IMG/VR virus record: IMGVR_UViG_2695420523_000022
DNA length: 15,244 bases
Direction: 5' to 3' (one strand)
Source of the DNA: a virus
Taxonomy: Duplodnaviria; Heunggongvirae; Uroviricota; Caudoviricetes
The notes beneath the pieces were generated by a model that was given only the letters and a program-made list of their open reading frames with translations, was not told the DNA's origin and searched no databases. Position numbers and translations under genes: made by a program. Shown here piece after piece: positions 6,342 through 13,980 of this stretch (positions within the stretch are counted from its first letter, which is position 1; each line of letters opens with the position of its first letter).

Positions 6342-6370
6342 AAAACACTAAAGGGGCTTTTAAGCCCCTT
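6342..6370 (-). terminator. GC-rich hairpin plus U-rich tract between the capsid and protease genes; probable partial terminator or attenuator
   Basis: Minus strand reads AAGGGGCTT-AA-AAGCCCCTT followed by TAGTGTTTTATG, 10 nt after the capsid stop. Confidence 0.5.
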
Positions 6371-6380
6371 CTGTATGCTG

Positions 6381-7538
6381 TTAATCGTCGTCCTGTGGCA
6401 GTTCCAGAATCTTGATCGCGTTCGAATCCACCACGCCACCGCCTAAATATTTCTGCGTGAAAATTTTGATGAAGCCCGGCTCTGTGAGGTTGTCCGGTCT
6501 GGTGCGAACACCTGTTTCGTGATCAACAATGTAGTAACCGCGTTTGAAGTCACCCAGGGCAATAACGTTATCAGGCATAAACTCCAGATATTCGACCGGA
6601 AGGCCCAGCAACGTATCAGGATCACCCGCCTGTAAACGGTCGCGCCAGATGTAATCACCGTTCGCGTTCTTCACCTTCTGAAGTTTTGCCGCCGTCGTGG
6701 AGTTAACCACCCAGACCGCGTTTTTGCGGTATTTTTTACGTAATGCAAATTTCAGGTCGATCAGCGGGTCAGCAGATGTCCACGCCAGAGATTCGGAAGG
6801 TTTAATTACCTGTAACGTACCAAAATCACGCTCTTTGTCGTTCTTCTCTGCACGGGGTACGGATAAAAAGCCTTTTGCTTTTTTGTCACCGTCGCCCACA
6901 ACCAGATCGCTTTCTTCGGTTTCCGTGAAGGTGTCGCCAATCTCACCCGTCAGCCATGAAAGGATGTCCACATCGGAAAAATCCACGATTTCCTGTGTGG
7001 TGCGCGGGTACGCATAGACCGGATACAGCTTAATGCTCACCTCGTTAATCTGCGGGGTGCTGGTCTGTTCGCGTGTCTTACCCTCTTCACCGTGGTTAAC
7101 GGTCGCACCGCCAGCGGAAACAAGCTGCTTAAACTCGTTGCTGCTGATTTTCTTCACGGTACAGATGCGGCGCATGGTGGATTCATCCGTCAGCATTCGC
7201 ATGATTTCGGTGTTCAGTTCGGGGATAACGGTATAACCACCATCAGCGGGAACGCCTGTACTTAATGCGCGGGTTTCACCTGTCAGGATGTAGTTGCGGA
7301 GTTCTGCCGGGTCAGTGGTCTGGCTGCTTTTACCTGGCTTGCTGCGCTCTTCGTCTGCAATGGCTTCAAGGCGGGAAATGTCTTTATCGAGGGATTCAGC
7401 TTTAGCGCGTAATTCGTCAAATTTTGCGCCCTCAGCATCGTTAAGACTGCGGTTTTCTTTTTCCGCGTTCTCCAGCATGTCGCGCATCTGATTTTTAATG
7501 GCGGTTTTCTGCTGGCGTAATTCGATTATTCTCGGCAT
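6381..7538 (-). CDS. Major capsid protein, HK97 fold (385 aa) with N-terminal coiled-coil delta/scaffold domain
   Basis: N-terminal 100 aa are charged and helical (ELRQQKTAIKNQMRDMLENAEKENR...), as in HK97-type capsid delta domains; C-terminal part resembles HK97-family capsids; followed by protease and portal. Confidence 0.85.
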   Translation of the reverse strand: MPRIIELRQQKTAIKNQMRDMLENAEKENRSLNDAEGAKFDELRAKAESLDKDISRLEAIADEERSKPGKSSQTTDPAELRNYILTGETRALSTGVPADGGYTVIPELNTEIMRMLTDESTMRRICTVKKISSNEFKQLVSAGGATVNHGEEGKTREQTSTPQINEVSIKLYPVYAYPRTTQEIVDFSDVDILSWLTGEIGDTFTETEESDLVVGDGDKKAKGFLSVPRAEKNDKERDFGTLQVIKPSESLAWTSADPLIDLKFALRKKYRKNAVWVVNSTTAAKLQKVKNANGDYIWRDRLQAGDPDTLLGLPVEYLEFMPDNVIALGDFKRGYYIVDHETGVRTRPDNLTEPGFIKIFTQKYLGGGVVDSNAIKILELPQDDD

Positions 7539-7575
7539 AAAAAAAGTCCTGGGGTTAAGTAAGGAACTCCAGGAC
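7539..7575 (-). promoter_or_regulatory. Terminator-like hairpin with U7 tract directly abutting the capsid ATG; stem contains the only SD-like AGGA
   Basis: Minus strand: GTCCTGGAGTT-CCTTACTT-AACCCCAGGAC-TTTTTTT-ATG (stem 7 bp + mismatch + 3 bp). Confidence 0.5.
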
Positions 7576-7752
7576 GCGGCAAAAACTCAACCGTTTTTCA
7601 TAAGGAAATCAGCAATCGCACCGATCGTTTTCCCGCCTGGTAATGAATATTGGCGAGAACATTAACAGGCGGAAAAGTGGCCCCAGCGTCCTGGCACCAC
7701 GGGCGAGAATAATCATGATTCAGTTCGGGTAAAATATGCCGATCCTGTCAGT

Positions 7753-7782
7753 GAACAACGTGGAACAACCACGAACAAATAA
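7753..7782 (+). promoter_or_regulatory. Three GAACAA pentamers at exact 10-bp phasing (gAACAAcgtg gAACAAccac gAACAAataa), about 215 bp upstream of the capsid start
   Basis: Direct reading; shares the 15-mer AACAACGTGGAACAA with 252-266 and the unit with 13931-13980. Confidence 0.5.
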
Positions 7783-7790
7783 TTTACAAA

Positions 7791-7819
7791 AAATGACAAA
7801 AAGCCGGATTGCTCCGGCT
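7791..7819 (-). terminator. Rho-independent terminator after the 74-aa ORF
   Basis: Minus strand: GCCGGAGCAATCCGGC followed by TTTTTGTCATTTTTT, 11 nt after the stop at 7830. Confidence 0.75.
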
Positions 7820-7829
7820 GTATGCGTGC

Positions 7830-8054
7830 TCAGTCCCTGATCCCTTTCAGAAATTCTATCAATGCATCTATCTGTTCAGGATTTACCGCCAGCATTTCAC
7901 CGGACAGAGCACATCTCACAAAACCATGCTGATCCTTTTCAATCAGTGCGCCCGTCTCCAGGAATGCGCGGTAATCATTGATGCTCATCGTCTCCATGTT
8001 GTCAGCATGGTATTTATCACGCTGTTTTAATATCTCATCAAATTTCATCGGCAT
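7830..8054 (-). CDS. Hypothetical protein (74 aa), moron-like with its own terminator
   Basis: ATG at 8054 (MPMKFDEILKQRDKYHADN...) with SD AGAGGA at 7-nt spacing; flanked by terminators on both sides. Confidence 0.5.
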   Translation of the reverse strand: MPMKFDEILKQRDKYHADNMETMSINDYRAFLETGALIEKDQHGFVRCALSGEMLAVNPEQIDALIEFLKGIRD

Positions 8055-8149
8055 TGTTTTTTCCTCTGTTGTGTCTGTTTGTTTCAGATAGTAACTATGC
8101 CTGACCGTGACGAAAACCCGGTAATGCGCCATACCGTTTCAACTGGTGC

Positions 8150-8173
8150 AAAAAAAGCCGGATTTCTCCGGCT
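8150..8173 (-). terminator. Rho-independent terminator after the PerC-like gene
   Basis: Minus strand: AGCCGGAGAAATCCGGCT followed by TTTTTTT, 5 nt after the stop at 8179; near-identical to the 7791-7819 terminator. Confidence 0.8.
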
Positions 8174-8178
8174 GTTGA

Positions 8179-8451
8179 TTAGCTGTCTGGGTAATTACGC
8201 CATATTTCATCGCTTACACCATCTATACCCATTTCAGCATAAGTGCGATCTACTGCCTTTCTCAGGTCTCCGAAGTTATCCGGCGGCTCCGGTGGCTTCT
8301 GTGCCTTCCTGGAACATTCCAGCCGTCGCATCGTAACCTGATGCCGTTCCTTGTCTGTCTCCACCAGCAGCATGACTTCACCCCATCGCGCCGCCGCCCT
8401 CCGGTAAAAGCCTTTCGCCTCGAGTTCTTCCGCTATGCGGTCATGTACCAT
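8179..8451 (-). CDS. PerC-family-like small transcriptional regulator (90 aa); family assignment tentative
   Basis: ATG at 8451 with SD GAGGGGG at 5-nt spacing; motif AEELEAKGFYRRAAARWGEVM resembles the PerC/Pch motif as I recall it; the track ORF from 8571 lacks a credible start. Confidence 0.45.
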   Translation of the reverse strand: MVHDRIAEELEAKGFYRRAAARWGEVMLLVETDKERHQVTMRRLECSRKAQKPPEPPDNFGDLRKAVDRTYAEMGIDGVSDEIWRNYPDS

Positions 8452-8461
8452 CGCCACCCCC

Positions 8462-8872
8462 TCAGAACGGAATACCGTCACCGTAAGGGTCATCGCCTCC
8501 CGCTGGTGGCTGATTACCCTGTGTGCCTGTGGTTTTGCGTCTGTTCCCGCCAGGACGTGCCGCACGGACACTGATTACGCTGTCTGCAATAACCTGATAA
8601 CCCTGCCGCGTTTCCCCGTTCTGTCCGGTCCACTGGCTGACCTGCATCGTGCCGGATACGCTGGCAACGTCGCCTTTTTGATGTTTAGCCAGGAAGTCGG
8701 CCTGCTTACCAAATGCGATGACCGATAGCCATAACGTCGCCTGCCCATCCTGCGCCTGACTACATGGCAACGATACCGCCATACGCGCCAGCGTCATCGG
8801 TGTGCCCTTACTGGTCTGTTTTACCTGCGGGTCGTCCACCAGCCGCCCGTAAGCCGCTATCTGTGCTGTCAT
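8462..8872 (-). CDS. ssb: Single-stranded DNA-binding protein (136 aa)
   Basis: OB-fold-like N-terminus, Gly/Gln-rich linker and acidic C-terminal tail ending DDPYGDGIPF, the canonical SSB tail type; ATG overlaps the upstream stop. Confidence 0.75.
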   Translation of the reverse strand: MTAQIAAYGRLVDDPQVKQTSKGTPMTLARMAVSLPCSQAQDGQATLWLSVIAFGKQADFLAKHQKGDVASVSGTMQVSQWTGQNGETRQGYQVIADSVISVRAARPGGNRRKTTGTQGNQPPAGGDDPYGDGIPF

Positions 8873-12053: not shown

Positions 12054-12273
12054 GTACCCCTCCGCATTTTTTTTCGTTAGAAATAAGCGTTCTTCTTTCC
12101 TGTTCATCGCTCAGGAATACGCAGACCTCACCGCTAAGGCGTTTAAGTAAGCCGATGATTGCCCCTGATTCGCTGTCGGTCATCATGCCAGGGTAATCCT
12201 CTGCCAGTGCGCAAATAACTTCGATTTGGTGGGCGCGTTCTGCTGCCTGTTGTAGTGTGATTTCCTGGCTCAT
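12043..12273 (-). CDS. Hypothetical protein (76 aa)
   Basis: ATG at 12273 overlapping the upstream stop (ATGA); SD AGGGGG 8 nt upstream. Confidence 0.45.
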   Translation of the reverse strand: MSQEITLQQAAERAHQIEVICALAEDYPGMMTDSESGAIIGLLKRLSGEVCVFLSDEQERRTLISNEKKCGGVHVQ

Positions 12274-12470
12274 AAGCCTACCCCCTGACGAATACGGGCA
12301 GCAAATACCATCACGCAGCCAGCCGGAGATTGCTGGCGTGCTTCCTGTTCGCTGGTGGCCTCAATGGTAATCACGCGCGGTTGTGCCGTGCTCAGGGCGA
12401 TAAAACGCCAGATGTATTTATTCAGGTTGTGCGAGTCCCGCCCTTGCGGGTGTATGGTATAATTTCTCAT
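12270..12470 (-). CDS. Small protein (66 aa), first gene of the leftward operon; possibly Icd-like (P4-type host cell division inhibitor family), tentative
   Basis: ATG at 12470 with SD GAGG at 5-nt spacing; MRNYTIHPQGRD...IWRFIALSTAQPRVITIEATSEQEARQQSPAGCVMVFAARIRQG resembles Icd-like satellite proteins as I recall them. Confidence 0.4.
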   Translation of the reverse strand: MRNYTIHPQGRDSHNLNKYIWRFIALSTAQPRVITIEATSEQEARQQSPAGCVMVFAARIRQGVGL

Positions 12471-12567
12471 AGCTGCCTCGATACTGTTGCTATCGTTGGT
12501 GGTTAGACGCCCTGCATGTGTTGCGAGCACTGCGGGGCGTTGCTTAATTTGAGTAACAAAACTCAAA

Positions 12568-12648
12568 CTGTGCGCACAGATTAAAATCATGTGTGCGCAC
12601 ATGTCAATACTTAACATCTCATTTTTTTTACTGTATTGTGTGCGCCCA
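12568..12648. promoter_or_regulatory. Divergent promoter region with three TGTGCGCACA-type operators (12569-12578, 12592-12601, imperfect 12639-12648)
   Basis: Leftward promoter: -35 TTGACA (revcomp of 12602-12607), 16-nt spacer, -10 TTTAAT (revcomp of 12580-12585); one operator fills the spacer, one sits at the predicted start site. Rightward promoter: -35 TTAACA 12611-12616, -10 TATTGT 12634-12639, overlapped by the third operator. Confidence 0.6.
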
Positions 12649-12675
12649 TAAAGTCCATTTAAGTGAGGTGCATCA

Positions 12676-12873
12676 ATGTCTAGCGGTAACAAAAACAACA
12701 AATCAGCAAAGAAAAATATTCGATTCCCACATGAGCTTATAGATGGGATTGATGCCAGCGTTGAACAAGAAAAATTAACTAATCCTAGTGCTAATTTTTC
12801 CGCATGGGTCTTAGATGCCTGTGGACGCAAATTAAAATATGAACAGCGCCGGAAGGCCAAAGAATCAGAATAA
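12676..12873 (+). CDS. YlcI/YnfO-family (DUF3950) small protein, likely ribbon-helix-helix DNA binder (65 aa); candidate island repressor
   Basis: NIRFPHELIDGIDASV...NFSAWVLDACGRKL matches the YlcI pattern (NIRFP...NFSAWVIEACRRRL) as I recall it; SD GTGAGGTG 6 nt upstream; divergent from the operator-bearing promoter. Confidence 0.65.
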   Translation: MSSGNKNNKSAKKNIRFPHELIDGIDASVEQEKLTNPSANFSAWVLDACGRKLKYEQRRKAKESE

Positions 12874-12930
12874 TCACTATCAGCGCCGTGGTGTGAGGAA
12901 CTACGGCGCATTTCTTTACAGGAGTAGACA

Positions 12931-13116
12931 ATGAACAACGAAGAATTACGGGAAATCGCATTATCCATACTTGAAAGACAGGTAGAAAAAAAATTAAGAG
13001 AAATGGATGAAATGCCTGACCATGAACAGGAAGCAAGGCCAAAAAGATTTGCCCTTGAGGATTTTCTTAAAAATTGCCCAAGAAAGATGAGATCGTGGCG
13101 TTGTTGTCCGCCCTGA
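12931..13116 (+). CDS. Hypothetical protein (61 aa) downstream of the ylcI-like gene
   Basis: ATG at 12931 with strong SD AGGAG at 6-nt spacing; MNNEELREIALSILERQVEKKLREMDE... Confidence 0.5.
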   Translation: MNNEELREIALSILERQVEKKLREMDEMPDHEQEARPKRFALEDFLKNCPRKMRSWRCCPP

Positions 13117-13288
13117 TGACAGATTTGCCAACCAGCCAAAAATGTGGCATCGTTGTCGATGCATAGTGTAATCAACATGTATATCATATTTTTGCCTGTA
13201 ATCCGGCAATTGTGGCGCTTCTTCACACAGTTGATATAATTCCAATGCTCATATTTATTTTTTGTGCAGCAGGTTAATCGTTCACAAA

Positions 13289-13318
13289 GGCGCTCAGGTA
13301 ACTGGGCGCTTTTTGTTA
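13289..13318 (+). terminator. Rho-independent terminator between the convergent alpA and ylcI-like transcripts (probably bidirectional)
   Basis: GGCGCTCAG-GTAA-CTGGGCGCT (9-bp stem with two G-U pairs) followed by TTTTTGTT; CCTTTGTG on the other strand. Confidence 0.6.
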
Positions 13319-13463
13319 TGCCTGAAAAACCCCAATTTTGTTGTTTTTCAGTTTCACCAGGGCGAACGAATCCCCGCCCACGTTCTGGCGTATATTCAAT
13401 CTTCATGGTTATAGCTCTGTGTTCAGATGATTGATGTGTGGCGGCTGCGTGCCGCCAGCGTGA

Positions 13464-13652
13464 TTAATGAACTGCCTTGCAGCTATCCTTCCAGGCCAGA
13501 ACCTCGGATAAAGACCAGCCAACGGAACGACCGCCAAGTTTACGACGTGATGGGAATTGTCCGGCCTTTTCCAGGCGGTAGCGGCATGAGCGGCTAAGGC
13601 CTGTTAGCTTTTCGCATTCTTTTTCACGTATAAACCGATCAGTGCTTAACAC
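13464..13652 (-). CDS. alpA: AlpA-family phage regulatory protein / excisionase-like wHTH (62 aa)
   Basis: LTGLSRSCRYRLEKAGQFPSRRKLGGRSVGWSLSEVLAW is the AlpA signature; GTG start at 13652 with SD AAGGGGG at 5-nt spacing. Confidence 0.8.
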   Translation of the reverse strand: MLSTDRFIREKECEKLTGLSRSCRYRLEKAGQFPSRRKLGGRSVGWSLSEVLAWKDSCKAVH

Positions 13653-13930: not shown

Positions 13931-13980
13931 CCTCTTGTTCGTAGTTGTTCCGCATTGTTGCTCATTGTTGCACGTTGTAT
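13931..13980 (-). promoter_or_regulatory. Five tandem 10-bp units each containing TTGTT (GAACAA on the minus strand) between int and alpA
   Basis: cctcTTGTTC gtagTTGTTC cgcaTTGTTG ctcaTTGTTG cacgTTGTAT; same unit and cgtg spacer as the arrays at 251-280 and 7753-7782. Confidence 0.55.

Follow-up and report, generated by a model that had tools for sequence, protein, structure and literature searches.

A predicted two-state RNA leader ahead of the capsid operon in capsid-forming phage satellites

The capsid gene of the satellite analysed here is preceded by a highly structured RNA leader of ~160 nt (7700..7539; z = -3.4), the last element of which is a hairpin that hides the only recognisable ribosome-binding candidate and directly abuts the start codon through a run of seven U. 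Because an alternative pairing of this hairpin covaries across lineages, the leader looks like a two-state switch, and we consider it rather probable that it controls the capsid/packaging operon of capsid-forming satellites in cis, with the off state being the more stable one. The leader RNA is conserved and previously uncatalogued, as we found neither an Rfam family nor a publication that describes it: a comparison with Rfam 15 gave no match at the gathering score and only chance-level matches at E up to 10 (for the window leader and one main-lineage leader), and a literature search returned no published leader, mapped start site or small RNA for Sp7, CP-933C or EcCIEDL933. The literature surveyed on capsid-forming satellites (cf-PICIs) does not address how they hold ~8 kb of structural genes silent when resident and then fire them on time, and no mention of a promoter, terminator or leader for the capsid operon was found in it. 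The present analysis pins the control region to ~290 bp with a predicted promoter and start site and with an uncatalogued leader that has two covarying, mutually exclusive folds. To test the mechanism, a few point mutations and their compensating changes would suffice.

The satellite and the hairpin at its capsid start

Capsid-forming satellites make their own heads and steal only tails. By its gene content, the window, i.e. the whole stretch of 15,244 nt that was analysed and to which all positions refer, is such an element: it is ~15 kb in size, and Pfam and PHROG assignments identified int, alpA and primase/helicase together with its own capsid, protease, portal, connectors, HNH, TerS and TerL, and no tail or lysis genes. 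It is ~99% identical to EcCIEDL933/Sakai Sp7, which correspond to each other according to the published description. The capsid gene, annotated in Sakai Sp7 as major head protein ECs_1590, heads the packaging operon and is followed by genes for protease, portal, head completion protein, connector, HNH, TerS and TerL, all named in the same Pfam search. Its AUG is correctly assigned, as the N-terminus M-[PK]-[RK]-[IL]-[IL]-ELRQQK is kept from residue 1 in all relatives. The features around this start codon are the following.

6381..7538, minus strand: major capsid protein gene, HK97 fold family (Pfam PF05065, E = 2e-61)
7539..7545, minus strand: U7 tract, read directly; U8 in some relatives
7546..7575, minus strand: terminal hairpin that sequesters an SD-like AGGA in its 3' arm (fold, inverted repeat I9, stem-preserving natural variants)
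7569..7577, minus strand: GCGUCCUGG, anti-Shine-Dalgarno 5' arm of the last hairpin (inverted repeat I11, duplex search, covariation)

On the minus strand, the region reads 5'-GCG UCCUGG A GUU CCUUACUU AAC C CCAGGA C UUUUUUU AUG-3'. An earlier sequence-only reading had described a stable hairpin, seven U and then the capsid AUG, with the AGGA lying inside the stem, and both observations hold: the hairpin (7575..7546) and U7 (7545..7539) directly precede the AUG (7538..7536), and the AGGA (7550..7547), the sole purine-rich motif of the last 20 nt before the AUG, sits within the 3' arm at a distance of 8 nt from it. In the hairpin, the 7-bp stem GUCCUGG/CCAGGAC, which has five G-C pairs, is followed by a single A·C mismatch, three further pairs and a loop of 8 nt. 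Together with its tail it reaches -14.1 kcal/mol (z = -4.85; 0 of 200 dinucleotide shuffles as good), a stability that matches the two canonical terminator hairpins just upstream (-12.6 kcal/mol each), and it was missed by a simple terminator scan because of the internal mismatch. The G+C-rich stem closes onto the tail, and the at least 5-6 U that mark an intrinsic (Rho-independent) terminator follow right after it, so that hairpin and U-tract have the predicted anatomy of such a terminator. At the same time, U7 fills the gap between hairpin and AUG and thus is both terminator-like tail and spacer between the SD-like sequence and the start codon.

Within the window's lineage the hairpin is kept in 21 of 21 distinct leaders, and natural variants preserve or strengthen its stem (CC>UU closing the mismatch in L104, G-C>G·U in L097, and GUCCUGGUG/CAUCAGGAC in L044/L294). 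An equivalent hairpin of different sequence occupies the same place in ~100 further distinct leaders; altogether, a hairpin that hides an SD-like sequence just before the AUG is kept in >100 distinct relatives, as three unrelated sequence versions. The U-tract is distributed differently, being present in all 21 window-type leaders versus none of 100 leaders of the commonest (main) type, which carry ACUCC-like spacers instead. Since the mask is kept while the U-tract is confined to the window's lineage, the conserved function is most likely the masking of translation, and termination is, judging from this distribution, most likely a lineage-specific addition. One lineage would hence have turned a translational mask into a terminator-and-mask by swapping a spacer for a U-tract.

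The leader belongs to the satellites and is found together with the capsid gene. The main-lineage equivalent of its 5'-terminal hairpin (HP1, see below) occurs in at least 120 viral contigs, and in 109 of 120 retrieved contigs a long ORF lies within 300 nt of the motif (median 130 nt downstream), overwhelmingly with the capsid N-terminus MKKL[LI]ELRQ. The leader was found in 361 of 5426 complete E. coli genomes, O157:H7 included, and was absent from the bona fide phages searched. AT-rich relatives have short, unstructured leaders, and the device is therefore not universal in the family.

One could argue that the hairpin is an ordinary feature without any role in regulation, which would merely end or insulate transcription coming from upstream, or stabilise the mRNA, and which ribosomes would open unaided. 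Start-codon-adjacent hairpins are indeed common, the fold is modestly unusual in its 81-nt context (z just -2.08), and a U-rich spacer could recruit ribosomal protein S1. From our point of view this explanation is nevertheless hardly credible, as the hairpin lies downstream of a conserved promoter that already has a dedicated terminator upstream, as the masking of an SD-like sequence has been re-created with three unrelated sequences, and as each of these versions is paired with a matching upstream competitor.

Two mutually exclusive folds of the leader

The competitor lies at the 5' end of the leader, which folds into two further hairpins.

7677..7700, minus strand: HP1, 5'-terminal hairpin GUGGU-G-CCAG-GACG-CUGG-G-GCCAC (-15.6 kcal/mol, z = -3.4)
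7629..7676, minus strand: HP2, long hairpin abutting HP1 (-19.7 kcal/mol, z = -5.7)

The apical part of HP1, CCAGGACGC (7694..7686), is a candidate anti-sequestor or antiterminator strand, as it can form a perfect 9-nt pairing with GCGUCCUGG (7577..7569; 100% complementary, I11). The latter has two perfect complements, CCAGGAC within the last hairpin's 3' arm and CCAGGACGC, and an upstream segment can pair with the terminator 5' arm and thereby exclude the terminator. Two states can be imagined on this basis. In state A (off), the computed thermodynamic ground state, HP1 would be closed, GCGUCCUGG would pair with CCAGGAC and the AGGA would be buried. In state B (on), which presumably represents the active form, the apical strand and loop of HP1 would capture GCGUCCUGG, so that the terminator stem is blocked and the AGGA is free. 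HP2 would probably serve as a scaffold holding HP1 close to the target arm, so that CCAGGACGC and GCGUCCUGG are juxtaposed.

Several lines of comparative evidence bear on the two states. The state A pairing is found in 95.9% of alignment cells, versus 35-53% with the partners slid against each other, and six of its pairs have changed on both sides; the corresponding values for state B are 88.9% versus 32-43%. HP1 is paired in 99.3% of cells, with compensatory changes in five of nine pairs and a nearly invariant GACG loop. For HP2, the sequence varies and the stem is kept, with 10 of 11 basal pairs changing on both sides and recovery by RNAalifold in 24 relatives; the structure that this program predicts independently contains HP1, HP2 and the last hairpin and includes 12 compensated pairs. 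Column 15 of the alignment forms pairs with column 10 (A-U 24, C-G 5, G-C 4) as well as with column 38 (U-A 24, G-C 5, C-G 4), without a single unpaired case, and such double covariation is, at the level of the alignment, the signature of competing helices. In the long-range pairing itself, the loop GACG and its flanks pair with CGUC and its flanks, the core being invariant and the flanks covarying.

The same partners emerge from an unbiased duplex search, which gave HP1 as the best upstream partner of GCGUCCUGG (-21.2 kcal/mol) and which lands on HP1 in all structured leaders. For three sequence-unrelated lineages, the matrix of cognate and non-cognate duplex energies is block-diagonal. The observed CCAGGACGC/GCGUCCUGG energy in the window was reached by 7 of 1000 shuffles, and shuffles as good numbered 7, 17, 2 and 0 of 1000 across the matrix; the covariation rests on few independent lineages (~3-4 sequence types, the commonest being nearly invariant in HP1 and the last hairpin), and these shuffle statistics consequently overstate independence. 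One of the two options raised in the sequence-only reading, that the head genes are switched on by RNA remodelling, has direct comparative support in the conservation of an upstream segment that complements the masking arm and covaries with it.

That the capsid start would be masked by default, as likewise claimed before, is borne out by the energies. The off fold is the minimum-energy fold and beats the alternative by 9.5 kcal/mol in the window; over 111 leaders the median gap is 6.6 kcal/mol, with state B being less stable than state A in almost all of them. In L044/L294, the minimum-energy fold of the entire leader is state B. Across the 111 leaders the SD region is paired to 82% in state A versus 44% in state B.

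The order in which the leader is synthesised suggests yet another reading, in which state B forms on each nascent transcript and the leader represents a folding programme or timer rather than a regulated switch, with regulation residing wholly at the promoter. The masking arm emerges ahead of the SD-like arm, so that young transcripts could escape termination, be translated and later relax to state A. Before the 3' arm is made, the two states are isoenergetic (-48.8 for A vs -50.9 kcal/mol for B), a near-equality upon emergence of the 5' arm that is similar in three relatives, and only afterwards does state A come to lie ahead by ~9 kcal/mol. The stability of state B in L044/L294 and the weak, probably activator-dependent promoter described below would fit as well. 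We regard this default-on scheme as unlikely, since HP1 (-15.6 kcal/mol) is complete ~100 nt before its competitor and must be invaded, and since translating the most abundant structural protein from young transcripts alone seems counter-productive. The nested-path barriers computed with findpath for the A-to-B transition are high (14-19 kcal/mol) but say little, as pseudoknotted branch migration is outside the scope of the method; taken at face value, they would also speak against the two-state switch by forbidding spontaneous refolding, unless branch migration is initiated from the loop.

Promoter, upstream region and candidate regulators

The interval 7539-7830, to which the hairpin had originally been assigned, does contain it, but it also covers a terminator further upstream, a conserved DNA motif accompanied by phased repeats, the promoter and the leader in full. 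The elements upstream of HP1 are the following.

7797..7819, minus strand: intrinsic-terminator-like hairpin AGCCGGAGCAAUCCGGCU followed by UUUUUGU (terminator scan; -12.6 kcal/mol, z = -4.9)
7753..7790, minus strand: DNA motif TTTGTAAATTATTTGTTC followed by TTGTTC units (conserved in relatives)
7706..7733, minus strand: predicted sigma-70-type promoter with -35 TTTACC (7733..7728), 16-nt spacer and -10 TATTCT (7711..7706) (geometry conserved)
7704..7714, minus strand: GAUUAUUCUCG, which overlaps the -10 element (I6, an inverted repeat of 11 nt, 100% complementary)

A 96% identical copy of the AGCCGGAGCAAUCCGGCU hairpin is found at 8152-8175 (repeat D1), and homology to E. coli elements whose upstream region differs sets in at this hairpin (~7824). 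The hairpin is predicted to close the upstream (replication/accessory) transcription unit and to insulate the capsid promoter. Downstream of it, four TTGT(A/T) units start at 7789, 7778, 7768 and 7758, i.e. one helical turn apart and at about -90 to -55 relative to the predicted start. TTTGTAAATTATTTGTTC is unique in the window and precedes the promoter in almost every relative, the repeats that follow it differing by lineage; from this arrangement we infer that the array represents putative binding sites of a transcription factor, presumably an activator. The only other site in the window with phased TTGTT[CG] units lies between int and alpA (13935-13970).

Transcription would start near 7700. 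The underlying geometry is shared by 81 distinct relatives with differing spacers and comprises a -35 TTTACN or TTTTCT, 16 nt, a -10 TATNNT, exactly 5 nt and HP1. A promoter scan called the promoter of L045 at 9/12 and scored that of the window at 8/12, which is under the threshold; weak hexamers together with a conserved upstream array are what is expected of an activator-dependent promoter. TTGTTC-16-TATTTT (start near 7724) was rejected as the main promoter, as it is kept only in the window's lineage whereas TTTACC-16-TATTCT is family-wide, and it is possible that it represents a second, upstream promoter. In this context, GAUUAUUCUCG is perfectly complementary to capsid codons 2-5 (CGAGAAUAAUC, 7534..7524). 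The pairing forms in the 341-nt minimum-energy fold, a length of 11 nt was reached by 5 of 20,000 shuffles, and the full match exists only in the window's lineage, with 10 of 11 positions matching in L044/L294. Only transcripts begun further upstream than the predicted start would contain GAUUAUUCUCG, and in these it would hold the initiation region shut.

Three candidate regulators were considered and rejected. PerC (pchE), as a possible operon activator, occurs in just 28 of the 169 upstream contexts; a small upstream ORF (phrog_1957) is found in 123 of the 169, but E. coli SCU-387 lacks it despite an identical leader; and a link to AlpA via shared repeats is striking in the window but not general, as the alpA-proximal arrays of other elements differ and none match the repeats of their own capsid promoter.

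A search for the trigger within the element gave only negative results. No conserved leader peptide was found in the leaders, which contain only GTG/TTG ORFs with variable starts whose recurring stop positions follow from sequence conservation. As neither a conserved leader ORF nor, at E up to 10, an Rfam family was detected, the leader has no recognisable sensing device of an attenuator. No tRNA or tmRNA was found in the window, a search of the whole element for trans partners of the HP1 5' strand or the masking arm yielded chance-level matches only, and a scan around 7600-7720 revealed no plus-strand promoter or terminator for an antisense RNA against HP1. HP1 may carry a protein site; alternatively, its extreme conservation could reflect a DNA operator at +1..+25 instead of an RNA role.

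Another way past the hairpin would be processive antitermination, in which the hairpin and U7 act as a true terminator and polymerase is made resistant by a helper Q-like protein or by the satellite's own AlpA, loaded at or upstream of the promoter. The hairpin has the full anatomy that this requires, the window encodes an AlpA-family protein (ORF 13652..13464, PF05930, E = 5e-18), and alpA is needed for EcCIEDL933 induction according to published work. The AlpA of Pseudomonas is Q-like and bypasses a leader terminator just downstream of its target promoters; phased TTGTT[CG] arrays are restricted to the two window sites named above, and further terminators on the same strand (8173..8156 and 7819..7802 in the scan) lie between alpA and the capsid gene. 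With antitermination alone, however, the SD-like sequence would stay covered and the covarying internal antiterminator would be left unexplained. The main lineage keeps the masking hairpin even though the U-tract is missing from 100 of 100 of its leaders. The -35/-10 spacer (CGAACTGAATCATGAT in the window) varies freely among relatives and therefore holds no conserved Q- or AlpA-type binding element, nor is there anything like the GGGACG-N5-GGTA that constitutes the Pseudomonas AlpA element between -35 and -10; this weakens the AlpA model, even though the E. coli AlpA could recognise a different site. Moreover, no -10-like pause signal is present in the first 20 transcribed bases, as the initial transcript GUGGUGCCAGGACG has no TAnnnT-like element of the lambda Q type, and the alpA-proximal repeats of other elements do not match those of their capsid promoters. 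Taken together with the absence of the leader from phages, these observations do not support the earlier proposal of a hijacked helper regulator, analogous to lambda Q at tR', as the conserved mechanism. We consider protein-mediated antitermination improbable overall, with AlpA-type antitermination being possible in the window's lineage only.

The combination of a sigma-70 promoter with a hairpin and U7 160 nt further on could also mean that the terminated leader is itself the product, i.e. a ~160-nt small RNA with a typical Hfq-binding 3' end that is made from the resident satellite and acts in trans. Such an RNA would resemble the pR' transcripts, short and terminated, that lambdoid and Stx phages make, and the high degree of structure of the leader would be in line with this reading. 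Yet the main lineage, having no terminator, cannot make a discrete small RNA, the conserved single-stranded parts complement the leader itself and nothing else found in the element, and the literature search brought up no description of a small RNA of this kind, all of which makes this explanation very unlikely.

Proposed mechanism and comparison with known systems

From our point of view, the two-state switch accounts best for these data and could operate as follows. The operon would be transcribed from a sigma-70-type promoter of its own, which a terminator would shield from the genes further upstream and in front of which the phased TTGT(A/T) array lies. By default the leader would adopt state A, and in the window's lineage the intrinsic terminator formed by hairpin and U7 would then abut the AUG, such that transcripts would presumably stop there in vivo or read through and be poorly translated. 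After satellite induction, some factor would probably stabilise state B or open HP1; candidates are a protein or an RNA with the nearly invariant HP1 as its binding site, or a pausing of polymerase during synthesis. One could speculate further that the switch senses the helper (the known helpers being HK106 and HK446), with HP1 as receptor for a trans factor, either a protein or an RNA on the HP1 5' strand, that is made only during helper/satellite induction and that releases the anti-sequestor and turns on elongation and translation of the operon. We put this forward as a tentative possibility. If true, this late switch would act post-transcriptionally and have no described counterpart in any phage satellite. 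It would form a second layer over an activator-dependent promoter, the phased upstream sites of which recur in the int-alpA control region.

With regard to known systems, the read-through early transcripts of the T4 genes e (lysozyme) and soc are translationally masked, and their late transcripts start inside the hairpin. Masking by start-site-dependent pairing is also predicted for the window, where the 11-nt clamp would exist only in read-through or upstream-initiated transcripts. The main hairpin, in contrast, lies wholly downstream of the predicted start, and promoter choice can hence not remove it, unlike in T4.

At pR'/tR' of lambda Q and PalpB/tB of Pseudomonas AlpA, a leader terminator close to a late or lysis promoter is passed only by modified polymerase. 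A putative terminator lies ~160 nt downstream of the predicted promoter in the window's lineage and is missing in 100 of 100 main-lineage leaders; the satellite encodes an AlpA-family protein as in the Pseudomonas system. Unlike these systems, it has neither a conserved element between -35 and -10 nor a promoter-proximal pause, the terminator is missing in most relatives, the leader has its own RNA antiterminator, and masking of the ribosome-binding site would outlast antitermination.

A closer resemblance exists to the attenuators of trp, pyrBI, bgl/sac and the T-box, with which the satellite shares a promoter-proximal leader that ends in a hairpin and U-tract, a terminator 5' arm that can pair with an upstream segment (here over a perfect, covarying 9 nt), and the retention of this segment in an anti-antiterminator hairpin (here HP1). 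It differs from them in that neither a leader peptide nor an Rfam match was found, nor any motif recognisable as a binding site for a protein, tRNA or ligand, and in that the terminator part is confined to a single satellite lineage. In addition, one helix would gate both transcription and translation, because the 3' arm holds the ribosome-binding site and the tail touches the AUG.

Lastly, the leader can be compared with the repZ/repA pseudoknot of IncI1, IncB/O and IncL/M plasmids, where the ribosome-binding site of the initiator gene likewise lies in a hairpin whose 5' side pairs with the loop of a stem-loop ~100 nt upstream. Asano and Mizobuchi reportedly described in 1998 a pairing of the repZ pseudoknot loop GGCG with CGCC; in the core of the satellite pairing, the loop GACG (GGCG in one lineage) pairs with CGUC. 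The pseudoknot is required for RepZ translation to begin (PMC8053102). In the plasmids, coupled translation of a leader peptide unlocks the pseudoknot and an antisense RNA blocks it, neither of which was found for the satellite leader. Whereas the plasmids use the loop only, the satellite pairing runs into the HP1 stem and therefore competes with HP1, and whereas the plasmid pseudoknot serves replication control, the satellite leader precedes a structural operon.

Genetic setting and the capsid start

The minus strand carries every gene of the window, and neither tail nor lysis genes were found in its gene content. In sequence comparison the region 7400-8200 shares ~99% identity with the E. 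coli O157:H7 Sakai 'prophage Sp7', by description EcCIEDL933, the prototype capsid-forming phage-inducible chromosomal island (cf-PICI). The available cf-PICI literature is silent on any promoter, terminator or leader of the packaging operon.

Gene order, minus strand: integrase, AlpA, primase/helicase, SSB, PerC-family protein (pchE), small ORF, packaging operon
Packaging operon, in order: major capsid protein, prohead protease, portal, head-completion protein, connector, HNH, TerS, TerL
7575..7546, minus strand: final hairpin (7 bp, one A·C mismatch, 3 bp, 8-nt loop)
7550..7547, minus strand: AGGA in the 3' arm (CCAGGAC), the sole Shine-Dalgarno-like motif
7545..7539, minus strand: U7, joining the final hairpin to the capsid AUG (7538)

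At the capsid start the mRNA strand reads GCGUCCUGGAGUUCCUUACUUAACCCCAGGAC-UUUUUUU-AUG, and this AUG is correct: conservation of the protein N-terminus begins at residue 1. The final hairpin has a folding energy of -14.1 kcal/mol (z = -4.85), equal in stability to two textbook terminator hairpins close by. The arrangement described in the sequence-only reading, namely a hairpin, seven U and then the capsid AUG, with the only Shine-Dalgarno-like sequence inside the stem, is real. Two copies of GA(U/G)UUCCUUA also occur in the leader, one upstream of the final hairpin (7601-7610) and one in its loop (7560-7569); their UUCCUUA part resembles the 16S rRNA 3' end and could represent a further anti-Shine-Dalgarno sequence. 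Between the capsid and protease genes (6350-6371, minus strand) lies another terminator-like hairpin (-14.8 kcal/mol, weak U-rich tail), which could lower downstream-gene expression relative to the capsid protein.

About 290 related loci were gathered from genomes, metagenomes and viral contigs, and their upstream regions were aligned. A fixed geometry is present in 81 distinct sequences: a -35-like TTTACN or TTTTCT, 16 nt that are themselves unconserved, a -10-like TATNNT, exactly 5 nt, and a hairpin. The window follows it.

7819..7802, minus strand: terminator hairpin upstream of the capsid promoter
7733..7728, minus strand: -35 element TTTACC, followed by 16 nt
7711..7706, minus strand: -10 element TATTCT, followed by CGCCC
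7700..7677, minus strand: HP1, the first hairpin of the leader

A scan tool recognised the promoter in the related locus L045, and the window's copy scores 8/12, slightly below the tool's threshold. We infer that transcription starts near 7700, which would place HP1 at the extreme 5' end of a leader of ~160 nt. In some relatives the -35 element is the tail of the upstream terminator. Between that terminator and the promoter lies the family-wide motif TTTGTAAATTATTTGTTC, followed by lineage-specific repeats spaced one helical turn apart, and together these look like an activator array. The window's lineage alone keeps a possible second promoter (TTGTTC, 16 nt, TATTTT; 7758..7731). Furthermore, GAUUAUUCUCG (7704-7714, overlapping the -10 element) shows 11 nt of perfect complementarity to capsid codons 2-5 (7524-7534), a match reached by 5 of 20,000 shuffles; such a helix would close off the initiation region, but only in transcripts that read through from upstream or initiate there.

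Conservation of the leader and its competitor helix

RNAalifold, applied to 24 leaders of the commonest (main) lineage, returned HP1, the long hairpin abutting it (HP2) and the final hairpin, with 12 compensated pairs; HP2 keeps its stem while its sequence varies freely. The final hairpin always has its end 3-8 nt upstream of the AUG, and its 3' arm carries a purine-rich Shine-Dalgarno-like motif in 21/21 window-type leaders and encloses it fully in 79 of 100 main-type leaders. Three lineages make this mask from unrelated sequences (GUCCUGG/CCAGGAC, GGUUUC/GAAACC, CUGCAUG/CAUGCAG), whereas the U-tract is confined to the window's lineage (21/21 vs 0/100 main type). Since the mask is common to three lineages and the U-tract to one, the conserved function of the final hairpin is most plausibly translational masking, and the window's lineage gained terminator anatomy when U7-U8 replaced an ACUCC-type spacer. 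The view that this leader is a conserved cis-regulatory element, with a last hairpin that masks the capsid start, can be put forward with high confidence. Most window-type leaders have U7 and several U8 (loci L094, L095, L023, L044, L294), a homopolymer length polymorphism that widens the 8-nt gap between the Shine-Dalgarno-like sequence and the AUG to 9 nt.

In the window a stretch within HP1's apical half, CCAGGACGC, is perfectly complementary to the 5' (masking) arm of the final hairpin, GCGUCCUGG, and in an unbiased duplex search HP1 was the best upstream partner of this arm in all structured leaders. In a 33-sequence alignment the long-range helix is 88.9% paired, compared to 32-43% in slid controls, and its core, loop GACG : CGUC, is essentially invariant. 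Column 15 has two partners: inside HP1 it pairs with column 10 (A-U 24, C-G 5, G-C 4), and in the masking arm with column 38 (U-A 24, G-C 5, C-G 4), both pairs being unbroken in every sequence, with a covariation signal drawn from just 3 or 4 independent lineages. One base covarying with two alternative partners is the signature of mutually exclusive helices. The matrix of cognate and non-cognate energies is block-diagonal across 3 lineages, and the observed duplex energies were matched by 7, 17, 2 and 0 of 1000 shuffles.

The closed state (HP1 and final hairpin formed) is the minimum-energy fold; its margin over the alternative (HP1 apical strand paired with the masking arm) is 9.5 kcal/mol in the window, and across 111 leaders the median margin is 6.6 kcal/mol. 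Pairing of the Shine-Dalgarno region falls from 82% in the closed state to 44% in the alternative. Immediately before the 3' arm is transcribed both states are isoenergetic; the leader would therefore be off at equilibrium and poised during synthesis. Nested-path refolding barriers are high, by a method that cannot represent loop-initiated strand displacement. From our point of view, the full two-state model, with HP1 as anti-sequestor/antiterminator, is somewhat favoured.

The window-type leader occurs in 361 of 5426 complete E. coli genomes, and a divergent subtype, L044/L294, has stem changes and retains hairpin, U8 and competitor. At least 120 viral contigs carry the main-lineage HP1 motif, with a single copy per element; of the 120 retrieved, 109 have a long ORF, overwhelmingly a capsid N-terminus, whose start lies 130 nt downstream (median). 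The leader is absent from genuine phages; among 50,697 phage records the three matches are one 16.5-kb record, one 3.8-kb fragment and one 106-kb record. AT-rich relatives (L122, L123, L127, L129, L131, L133) keep the TTTGTAAAT motif, the upstream terminator and a promoter-like TTATTTTTCATG..TTAAAT, and have unstructured, A/C-rich leaders of ~35-60 nt that carry no Shine-Dalgarno-like motif. The family as a whole therefore does not share the RNA switch.

Candidate triggers

Searches for a conserved leader peptide, an antisense promoter against the leader, a complementary partner elsewhere in the element and a matching Rfam family were negative. HP1 is near-invariant among elements with capsid proteins 63-75% identical to that of the window, which suggests that a factor recognises it; such a factor is one of three candidate triggers.

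TTGTT[CG] units exactly 10 bp apart form just two clusters in the 15-kb window.

7753-7790, minus strand: cluster 1, upstream of the capsid promoter
13935-13970, plus strand, opposite in orientation to cluster 1: cluster 2, in the interval from the integrase stop to the alpA promoter

This suggests that a single DNA-binding protein acts at both control regions. AlpA, acting by Q-like antitermination, remains a candidate trigger in that the window's arrays lie only at these two places, the element encodes the protein, the literature reports it as needed for induction, and a Pseudomonas homologue is described as a Q-like antiterminator working on a leader terminator. However, the two-cluster match was not reproduced in other elements examined, so that the link does not generalise, the promoter spacer offers no conserved element for AlpA, and antitermination leaves the Shine-Dalgarno-like sequence buried in its stem. 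In the ORF downstream of alpA (12270-13406, minus strand), the C-terminal ~50 residues match both phage 'transcriptional repressor' PHROGs and the domain of Icd-like host cell-division inhibitors (NF033153, E = 2e-18).

The product of the small upstream ORF (phrog_1957) likewise remains a candidate. Its confident structure model matched no known folds, and the ORF is dispensable, since E. coli SCU-387 has the same leader without it, even though it is widespread (123/169 contexts). In the window, two terminator hairpins (7797-7821 and 8152-8175, 96% identical) flank the small ORF (8054..7830). In SCU-387 the interval from PerC to the capsid promoter holds one terminator and lacks the ORF, so the ORF together with one terminator resembles a cassette that was inserted or lost. 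In E. coli elements pchE (8179-8571, PerC family) lies immediately upstream of the capsid control region; being present in just 28 of 169 upstream contexts, it is accessory and not a core regulator of the capsid operon. According to the literature, this PerC homologue has no effect on LEE1.

Relation to known systems

The earlier interpretation is supported in part. Its view that the capsid start is masked by default and needs RNA remodelling is borne out by the favoured closed fold and the covarying competitor helix. Its suggestion of a hijack resembling lambda Q at tR' is unsupported as the conserved mechanism. [quoted passage not shown] The leader's logic is that of a terminator/antiterminator/anti-antiterminator attenuator fused to a Shine-Dalgarno sequestor. 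Nearest in topology is the loop-to-RBS-hairpin activator pseudoknot of IncI/IncB plasmid rep genes, although the leader has neither the leader peptide nor the countertranscript of those systems. We rate it as an uncatalogued leader family in phage satellites.
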